A stretch of DNA of 64,000 nt from Wickerhamiella versatilis (taxonomy: Eukaryota): assembly GCA_030867685.1 (NCBI GenBank), contig JAQOWU010000007.1, positions 1,674,001 to 1,738,000 on the forward strand, given 5' to 3'. The notes under the pieces are model-generated. The model saw nothing but the letters and a program-made list of their open reading frames with translations. It had not been told where the DNA came from and searched no databases. Position numbers and translations under genes: made by a program. Position 1 is the stretch's first letter; the number at the start of each line of letters is the position of its first letter. Below are positions 11,401 to 13,640 of this stretch, in pieces.

Positions 11401-13640
11401 TATGCAACAAGCTGGTAGTCGTTCGTGGTGAAGGTGAGACGCTAGACAATGCCCAGGACAATGCAACCACTCTCTTCAGATGCCTTGTTCGCTCACGTCT
11501 AGCAACAAAGAGAATAACAGAAGAGTATCGTCTGACACGCAATGCATTTGAGTGGGTTCTAGGAGATGTTGAGTCGCAGTTCATGCGTAGTCTTGCCCAT
11601 CCAGGTGAGATGGTAGGTGTTGTTGCTGCTCAATCGATTGGTGAGCCAGCAACGCAAATGACACTCAATACTTTCCACTATGCTGGTGTGTCGTCTAAAA
11701 ATGTAACATTGGGTGTACCACGTTTGAAGGAGATTCTCAATGTTGCTAAGACAATTAAGACACCTGCTCTTACGGTTTATCTTCAACCGGAGGTAGCAGG
11801 TGATATTGAACAGGCTAAGGTAGTACAAAGTGCGATCGAACATACGTCACTCAAAGGTGTTACTGCTGTCACAGAGATTTATTACGATCCAGATCCTCGT
11901 ACTACAGTTATTGAAGAGGATCTTGACACTGTTGAGGCTTACTTCTCCATTCCAGATGAACAGGTAGAGGCAACCTTATACATGCAGTCGCCTTGGTTGT
12001 TACGTTTAGAGCTTGATCGTGCTAAGATGCTTGATAAACAACTAACAATGTCTCAAGTTGCCGAGACGATCAGCCAGAGTTTCGCCGGTGATCTTTTCGT
12101 CATGTGGTCTGAAGATAATGCTGAAAAACTGGTGATCCGATGCAGAGTTGTTCGTGATCCGAAGACACTTGACGAAGAAGAGGCTCAAGAAGAGGATCAA
12201 ATGGTGAAACACGTTGAACAGTACATGCTTGACAACATAAGTCTTCGTGGTATTCCAGCAATAACCCGTGTCTTTATGATGGAGGACAAACAAAGGATTA
12301 TCGATCAAAAGACAGGAGACTACGAAACTAAAATGGAGTGGATCCTCGAGACCGATGGTATTAATCTAGGCGAGGTTATGACTGTTCAAGGTGTAGACGC
12401 GCACCGGACATACTCAAACTCTTTCGTTGAGATTTTAGGAGTTCTGGGTATCGAAGCCACTCGAACTGCTTTGTTCCGAGAACTGTCCAAGGTTATTGAA
12501 TTTGATGGTTCTTATGTCAATTATCGCCACATGGCATTGCTTGTGGATGTAATGACATCCCGAGGACATCTGATGGCAATCACACGTCATGGTATCAATC
12601 GTGCAGACACTGGTGCGTTGATGCGCTGCTCCTTCGAGGAAACAGTAGAAATTTTACTTGAAGCCGCAGCAACAGCAGAACTTGATGATTGTCGCGGAGT
12701 CTCAGAGAACATCATGTTGGGCCAGATGGCTCCCCTTGGAACCGGTGCGTTTGAGGTTTATCTTGACGACAAGACTCTTGCCTCGATGCCTGCACCAGAA
12801 ATTGGTGCCATTGATGGGTCTGCGACGCCATATGAGTCGTTTACGCCTGCGCATGATTCCGCGGCAGGTGATGGTGGTGATGCTGCTTTCTCTCCTCTGG
12901 TGGCATCTGGTATGGGTGATGCAGTTACCCGTGGTGGTTTCACTGAATACGGCAGTGCGGCATCTCCATTTACGGCAGCATCTCCGGCCTGGGGTGGCGC
13001 ATCTCCGGCTTTCGGAGCCGCGTCGCCTGCATTTGGAGCTGCATCGCCTGCATTCGGGGCCGCTTCTCCCGCATTTGGGGCCGCTTCTCCTGCCTTTGGA
13101 GCCGCTTCTCCTGCCTTTGGAGCTGCCTCCCCTGCCTACCAGCCATCTTCACCTTCGTTTGGTGGTGTTTCGCCTGCTTATGCGCCATCGCCTGTGTATG
13201 ACCCAGCAGCTTCGGTGTCGCCTAGTTATAGTGCGAGTGGAGCTTACCAGGCTGTCTCACCTAGTTTCAGTCCTACAAGCCCAACATCGCAAAGCCCCTC
13301 GTCGCCGCGTTATTCTCCTGGTGGTTCGCCTACGTCCCCTGCATATGGTGGTTATAGCCCAACATCACCGGCTGCGAATTATAGCCCAACATCACCGGCT
13401 GCAAATTATAGCCCGACTTCACCAGCCGGCTACTCCCCTACGTCGCCTGCTGGTTACTCCCCTACGTCGCCTGCTGCTAATTACAGCCCGACTTCTCCTG
13501 CGGGTTATTCTCCTACTTCACCAGCAGCTTCTTACAGTCCAACCTCTCCAACTTCTTATTCACCAACGTCGCCGGCCGGGCAGTATTCACCAACATCTCC
13601 CCGACCTCCGGCCTCTCCAGAATATAATCCAGATGCGTAA
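8436..13640 (+). CDS. RPB1: RNA polymerase II largest subunit
   Basis: CQTC/CPGHFGH zinc sites, NADFDGD catalytic motif, [14 protein letters not shown]-terminal SP-repeat domain. Confidence 0.99.
13011..13136 (+). repeat. Coding tandem repeat, 6 x 21 bp (FGAASPA), proximal RPB1 CTD
   Basis: Six consecutive FGAASPA units with synonymous codon variation. Confidence 0.95.
13353..13601 (+). repeat. Coding tandem repeat, 10 x YSPTSP cores with 24/27-bp period, distal RPB1 CTD
   Basis: Units [19 protein letters not shown]; Tyr-to-Tyr spacing 9,9,8,8,9,8,9,8,9. Confidence 0.95.

Follow-up and report, generated by a model that had tools for sequence, protein, structure and literature searches.

Rpb1's C-terminal domain (CTD) has a functional unit that is described in S. 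cerevisiae as two tyrosines seven residues apart together with three Ser-Pro pairs (PMC3646058, PMC5940151). The CTDs of Saccharomycetes and budding yeasts are characterised as very regular (PMC3646058, PMC9451162), and CTDs are reported to have been shaped by tandem amplification and to have lost their repeat structure many times (PMC3646058). In a 2026 study the Tyr1 rings occupy pockets in the head and middle of Mediator, and octads clash with these pockets and are non-viable in S. cerevisiae because the pockets are spaced one heptad apart (PMC13377220). According to the same account, the Mediator-bound CTD segment must be uncharged and comes free when its Ser-Pro sites are phosphorylated, and a grammar of XSPXXSP is proposed in which neither Ser-Pro pair can be missing (PMC13377220). 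A yeast structure is described with 11 CTD repeats, the longest stretch being 6 (PMC10104585), and proximal repeats 4-9 have been proposed as the Mediator site (PMC5940151). Exchange of Tyr1 for Phe in all heptads is said to kill S. cerevisiae as well as human cells (PMC13377220), whereas Phe at position 1 is tolerated in S. pombe, where Pro3 is essential and where the CTD has four deviant junction repeats, termed the 'rump' (PMC8051263). In the linker, TPY and FSP motifs bind Spt6 in S. cerevisiae (PMC5599234).

It has long been asked what makes the CTD a heptad and whether its period and its phospho-sites serve different partners, and with uniform arrays such questions are difficult to test. 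Here we describe an RPB1 tail from the yeast Wickerhamiella versatilis, encoded in a 64,000-nucleotide stretch of DNA (the window). As judged by comparison with the tails examined, what appears new is a budding-yeast tail with no diheptad, in which a 7-residue block stands beside stretched repeats; its ingredients each occur elsewhere. We found no published account of this tail or of any CTD from the Wickerhamiella/Starmerella (W/S) clade in a search in which subscription journals and supplementary CTD alignments were thinly covered, and an earlier listing there is possible. A broad CTD survey was reportedly made by Yang and Stiller in 2014.

An RPB1 tail without diheptads

A search of the genome (9.88 Mb, 8 contigs) for Rpb1 domain 5 (Rpb1_5) returned three matches, one of them in the window. 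The remaining two lie in open reading frames (ORFs) that are 1613 and 1407 aa long and, judged from this size, probably encode the Pol I and Pol III subunits. No second RPB1 with a canonical tail was found in the genome by the Rpb1_5 search or by a search with the tail DNA, which matched this locus only. As far as these searches show, the ORF at 8436-13640 is the cell's only RPB1. Its tail has the setting of an Rpb1 CTD region: upstream, the ORF carries Pfam Rpb1 domains 1-7, and the two linker motifs stand before the block. The features, in window coordinates, are as follows.

8436..13640 (+), RPB1 ORF, uninterrupted, 1734 aa; Pfam Rpb1 domains 1-7, no PF05001 repeat match
12825..12833 (+), TPY linker motif, equivalent of S. 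cerevisiae T1471-Y1473 (Spt6 tSH2 site), by sequence match (PMC5599234)
12888..12896 (+), FSP linker motif, equivalent of S. cerevisiae S1493 (Spt6 tSH2 site), by sequence match (PMC5599234)
12948..12968 (+), YGSAASP, an extra unit with its aromatic in the 7-residue register and its Ser-Pro shifted by one
12969..13178 (+), the ten-unit heptad block (aa 1512-1581), with aromatic-1 and Ser5-Pro6 in 10/10, from translation
13011..13136 (+), core of the block, six FGAASPA copies that differ at third codon positions only
13137..13157 (+), YQPSSPS, the block's only Pro3 unit; with the next Phe it makes a full Pro-x-Ser-Pro-x-aromatic (Kin28-type) site
13179..13352 (+), Ser-Pro-rich irregular spacer, starting with Tyr1582, the final in-register aromatic
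13353..13601 (+), distal array, made up of ten YSPTSP units at intervals of 8 or 9 residues, with no pair 7 apart

The spacer contains a single FSPTSP and a pair of full Kin28-type sites, as well as four Ser-Pro-x-aromatic-x-Pro sites, of which one starts inside the last unit of the block. In the whole tail there is no YSPTSPS and no Tyr1-Tyr8 diheptad, and PF05001 finds no match, though it does match the RPB1 of W. sorbophila. The tail is 297 aa long and has 35 aromatics; five clade relatives have 266-295 aa and 33-37 aromatics.

The heptad block is expressed and constrained at the protein level

Translation of 12969-13178 (+) returned exactly the ten units, in exact 7-residue register, that the original prediction had listed, and TRF reported a 21-nt array of 6.6 copies with 82% matches at 12998-13135. 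Nine of the ten fit the description given there, that aromatic-1 and Ser5-Pro6 are all they retain; the exception is YQPSSPS, which has Pro3 and Ser7 as well. The aromatic register extends further than had been noticed, with 12 aromatics 7 apart from Tyr1505 (in YGSAASP, 12948) to Tyr1582 (13179). When the residues of aa 1500-1734 were shuffled 10,000 times, the longest chance run of aromatic-x-x-x-Ser-Pro units 7 apart was 2, and it was 4 when Ser-Pro was held as a single token (10,000 trials), compared to the observed 10. There are no charged residues among the 77 of aa 1505-1581. Measured against the canonical heptad, the block has the 7-residue period with aromatic-1, and Ser5-Pro6 in all ten units, but Ser2-Pro3 in none, Pro3 in one, and no diheptad anywhere in the tail. 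A protein search matched the block to the FG repeats of plant Nup98, a likeness that is compositional only.

Strain and read data were taken from 4 of 24 listed runs, namely X21 (RNA), X12, X14 and X16, with the small-share runs X17-X20 left out. Raw RNA reads of X21 covered the block at ~150-200 reads per direction, without joints and with all six core copies, which rules out an intron or an assembly artefact as its source. A comparison of copy number among strains had been proposed, and it revealed either 5 or 6 FGAASPA, with variation in the distal array as well. Contigs from X12 and X14, which come from food fermentation metagenomes of two studies, are without one 21-nt core copy (placed at 13080) and so carry 5 FGAASPA, while X16 has six core copies and one 24-nt distal unit missing. 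Both the 21-nt and the 24-nt losses are in frame.

The synonymous divergence between copies that had been read from the sequence was borne out. The six FGAASPA are encoded by 6 distinct DNA sequences, in which 16/16 differences from the consensus fall at third codon positions; on average 58% of third positions differ between core copies, with no amino-acid change. Across units 1-8, synonymous codons hold 23 differences and changed codons 6, even though changing sites outnumber silent ones by ~2.3:1, a count biased by the choice of these units for their likeness. Among the strain differences listed, 6/6 in the block are synonymous, compared to 30% expected from random changes (p ~7e-4), and 13/13 from aa 1500 onward are silent. 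The block is expressed and constrained at the protein level.

Relatives and origin of the block

When 26 RPB1 cores were placed in a quick maximum-likelihood tree, the protein grouped with W. sorbophila and four other sequences (SH-aLRT 100), sister to three of these, on an end branch of 0.13. The five relatives in the W/S clade have 15-18 YSPTSPS and 16-18 diheptads each, compared to 0 here. Since all five keep YSPTSPS arrays, the tail was rebuilt on the branch to this yeast. No closer RPB1 relative, above ~73-75% identity, was returned by two protein searches, a metagenome scan and a tail search of 1.84 billion representatives. The metagenome scan gave 80 loci, the best at 75% identity, and the tails of 13 were read. 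A Med6 that is 78% identical (P0232) indicates a sister species, whose RPB1 was not found in the same protein, metagenome and representative searches.

For a wider survey we dropped proteins of <900 aa, those with no anchor motif, tails of <120 or >700 aa and duplicates, and 193 distinct tails out of 229 proteins remained, a set that is biased toward query-like sequences and in which S. cerevisiae alleles are numerous. None of the 192 other RPB1 tails has 0 diheptads, and consecutive heptads lacking Ser2-Pro3 number 10 here against at most 4 in these tails. Among 52 CTD-like proteins from 149 new representatives, P0446, which has no RPB1 anchor, has six consecutive heptads that lack Ser2 and keep Pro3, and two other proteins without the anchor, like P0446 at most putative RPB1s, have 0 diheptads in the last 320 residues examined.

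Units resembling those of the block occur singly or in pairs in related yeasts. In 16/18 related tails, one or more aromatic-Gly-x-x-Ser-Pro units stand between a conserved GGFTEYG-type motif and the first YSPTSP, and 6/18 have exact FGAASP at this linker/CTD junction. The deviant heptads of this tail follow the same motif and are thus placed like junction repeats, or rump. There are eight such units here, seven of them consecutive, against 0-2 in relatives (5 in P0100, with a longest run of 2). That FG..SP-type repeats in fungal CTD linkers tend to be few, as the original prediction stated, agrees with our first search, in which 81/109 tails had at least one and the longest run was 4. These comparisons indicate that the block is an amplified form of a junction unit that relatives carry once or twice. 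Decay of YSPTSPA to FGAASPA was judged less likely, since the junction unit of relatives already has FGAASPA-type sequence. Small expansions of the junction unit are also seen in Trichomonascus (P0015, P0033), P0100 and Pichia. Absence from close relatives had been named as one of the outcomes that together would speak against a function. The expanded block is absent from the relatives sampled, yet this does not refute function because those relatives keep canonical arrays.

Comparison with known CTDs

Like the canonical CTD (PF05001; S. cerevisiae, W. sorbophila), the tail follows the Spt6 linker, is of similar overall length and aromatic content, and has a 7-residue period with one Ser5-Pro6 per unit. 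The block differs in having Phe for Tyr, and nine of its ten units are without Ser2, Pro3 and Thr4. It shares location and sequence type with the S. pombe rump and with the FGVSSPG/FGAASPG units of budding yeasts, but in relatives the junction units precede a heptad array, whereas here the block precedes an out-of-register array. Loss of consensus is common to this tail and to irregular CTDs of other fungi and protists, such as those of T. ciferrii (P0015), P0123, P0367 and the polar fungi described in PMC9451162. In contrast to this tail, with 0 diheptads, these irregular CTDs keep 2-7 relaxed diheptads, and those of polar fungi both Ser-Pro pairs. A long Gly-type block joined to a fully out-of-register YSPTSP block was found in no other tail examined.

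Each part also has an engineered counterpart. The distal block, with its octads and nonads, is the natural equivalent of the engineered octad mutant, and the proximal block that of S. pombe-type mutants, as Y1F+S2G+P3A+T4A+S7A. Engineered octads or P3A alone are lethal in model yeasts, whereas here both forms are combined on the genome's only RPB1.

Irregular tails of other kinds were met in the survey. P0015 (Trichomonascus ciferrii) and its close relative P0033 represent a further budding-yeast lineage in which the CTD is degenerate, with 1-2 YSPTSPS and a small junction-unit expansion. The CTD of RPB1 P0123 (1784 aa) strictly alternates YSPSSPA and YGAASPA, with 2 diheptads, an independent use of the Gly-type unit, and that of RPB1 P0367 (1783 aa) contains a run of nonads, YSPSSPAAA/AQA, with 4 diheptads.

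A possible Mediator-docking role for the block

The block is the tail's sole long 7-periodic aromatic run, and it is proximal, uncharged and has Ser-Pro in every unit. With 77 uncharged residues and 12 in-register aromatics, it has the sequence character of a Mediator-bound segment, which we took as an uncharged stretch of at least ~6 units with aromatics one heptad apart. We suggest that its likeliest role is to dock Mediator at initiation, to which we give a probability of roughly 0.4. This reading rests on the block's unique feature, the 7-periodic aromatics, and Mediator docking was left out of the original prediction; the initiation-stage role proposed there is plausible. On the branch to this yeast, the canonical heptad array was replaced by YSPTSP units 8-9 apart, and the junction unit was amplified to give 12 successive aromatics 7 apart, a run that was kept at the protein level. 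The block would then substitute for the lost heptad register. Ser-Pro phosphorylation, probably starting at the Pro3-bearing unit on the distal edge of the block, would peel the block off and allow promoter escape. The distal YSPTSP units may then carry the phospho-marks for single-unit readers, such as CID proteins and probably much of capping, along with the Spt5 repeats. More tentatively, the CTD code may be split on this polymerase, with the Phe-Gly block alone supplying 7-periodic aromatics to Mediator and the octad/nonad YSPTSP block alone holding the Ser2/Thr4/Ser5 marks; two forms that are each lethal in model yeasts would then complement each other on one polymerase. If the blocks do divide the work, the tail would be a natural separation-of-function allele for the 2026 model, in which Mediator reads the aromatic period and elongation factors read local phospho-words.

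The Mediator side of this proposal was assessed from the genome. Med4, Med6, Med8, Med17, Med31 and Tfb3 are all present. By hand count on alignments of Med6, Med8 and Med17 only, the pocket residues retained are Med8 L109/L113, Med6 D124 and Med17 L220, position 223 of Med17 also being acidic, while the equivalents of Med6 Y154 and Y161 are Phe and His in this yeast. In the source, Med17 223 is called Asp, but it is Glu in the deposited sequence; Tyr154 and Tyr161 are given there as Med8 residues, yet it is in Med6 that tyrosines stand at these numbers (PMC13377220), and we infer that they are Med6 residues. In 119 other Med6 proteins, the equivalent of Tyr161 is Tyr in 108, Phe in 9 and His in 2, these being P0232, the closest relative, and Lipomyces arxii (query Med6 at L009:1477-2061, contig C8). 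His at this position is a weak signal of co-evolution, as L. arxii shares it yet has a regular heptad CTD, and 9/55 conserved Med6 columns differ in the query. A complex prediction of Med6, Med8 and the N-terminal part of Med17 with the block scored 0.00, with chains folded without alignments, and weighs neither for nor against docking.

Several observations count against docking. Med17 223 and Med6 D124, the residues that accept the hydroxyl, are retained, so no adaptation to Phe is seen. An all-Phe CTD kills S. cerevisiae and human cells, the XSPXXSP grammar asks for two Ser-Pro pairs, and S. pombe needs Pro3, while nine of the ten units are without Pro3, and under the S. cerevisiae rule this missing Pro3 would make most units poor Kin28 substrates. 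Many fungi have irregular CTDs with short 7-periodic runs (the longest in Trichomonascus is 4-5), and therefore a long register is not universally needed. Natural strains can lose one copy, and an amplified 21-nt unit preserves the heptad register without selection for register.

Other explanations for the block

This last point is central to an account that we consider rather unlikely, in which the block preserves tail length and aromatic 'stickers' for Pol II clustering or phase separation and the register is a by-product of 21-nt amplification. Length and aromatic count do match those of the five clade relatives despite the rebuilt sequence, copy number differs among strains, the block is similar enough to plant Nup98 FG repeats to match them in a search, and divergent fungal CTDs are reported to differ in phase behaviour (PMC9451162). 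This account leaves open how a register-reading Mediator, with most of the pocket residues checked kept, is served without any diheptad, and a plain spacer would have no need of Ser-Pro at positions 5-6 in all units. If length compensation were all, the diheptad rule would still not be general, even within budding yeasts. Near-neutral slippage, in which the junction unit was amplified during replication and tolerated while the essential CTD functions rest on the distal units and a few full sites, as in other irregular-CTD fungi, seems improbable to us. It would fit the tandem amplification and repeated loss of repeat structure described for CTDs (PMC3646058), the small independent expansions of the junction unit in Trichomonascus (P0015, P0033), P0100 and Pichia, and the gain and loss of units among strains in both blocks. 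It sits poorly with the 58% mean third-position divergence of core copies at zero amino-acid change, with the excess of synonymous over changed codons in units 1-8, biased as that count is, and with the strain differences, which are all silent among those listed.

The original prediction proposed a bipartite CTD with a Ser5-only block, phosphorylated by Kin28 and recruiting capping enzyme, and a distal block that serves elongation and 3'-end factors. The bipartite layout stands, the block being heptad and the distal units spaced 8-9, but the case for a dedicated capping module is weak, with Pro3 missing from nine of the ten units, and we think such a module doubtful. Ser5-Pro6 is described as the S. 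pombe capping word (PMC8051263), and the pSer5-Pro-x-Tyr1 (aromatic) junction that guanylyltransferase binds occurs 16 times in the tail, 10 in the block and 6 elsewhere, with 0 between the ten distal units. In the yeast's guanylyltransferase (L005:1366-2511, contig C8), by hand count on the alignment and with docking-residue roles as given in PMC4066402 and PMC4977518, the first docking site retains Arg157 and Tyr165, while Arg140, Lys178 and Lys193 of the second read Lys, Cys and Gln, so that this second site looks worn relative to the Candida enzyme. On the other side, Met takes the place of the first site's Lys152, and capping enzymes are reported to vary widely in these residues (PMC4066402). 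Exchange of Pro3 for Ala is described as abolishing binding of the S. pombe capping enzyme in vitro (PMC4066402), and Kin28 is said to require Pro at -2 (Pro3), Pro at +1 (Pro6) and Tyr at +3 (the next Tyr1) (PMC8026125). By this S. cerevisiae rule there are 4 full Kin28-type sites in the tail, with one of the ten block units among them, compared to 18-21 in the five clade relatives. Serines with the +3 aromatic but no -2 Pro number 12 and the reverse 11, and therefore both blocks are partial Kin28 sites. All six Pro3-containing junctions lie at the edge of the block or beyond it, and none arises from FGAASPA-FGAASPA. The distal block likewise has Ser5-Pro6 in all units, and Spt5, whose repeats are reported as a second capping-enzyme site in S. 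pombe (PMC4066402), keeps 12 TPAW repeats. With the distal Ser5-Pro6, the six Ser-Pro-x-aromatic-x-Pro sites at the edge or outside and the Spt5 repeats, capping therefore has other routes.

CTD readers and neighbouring genes

No loss of CTD readers was seen; Set2 SRI, three CID proteins, the capping enzyme, Tfb3 and the Spt5 repeats are present in the genome. The C-terminal repeats of Spt5 (contig C7:1357000-1361500) are TPAW units of ~nine residues, resembling the S. pombe nonamer. Within the window, a BRCT-repeat protein gene (13840-15420, -) is convergent with RPB1 and ends ~200 bases past the RPB1 stop, with a minimum of RNA depth between the two genes. A gene with a histone deacetylase domain follows at 15531-16871 (-). 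An ORF at 19877-20926 (+) is presumably a Hog1-type MAP kinase, judging by eye from a TGY motif. Tfb3/MAT1, a subunit of the TFIIH kinase module, is encoded at the window's end (63053-63634, +).
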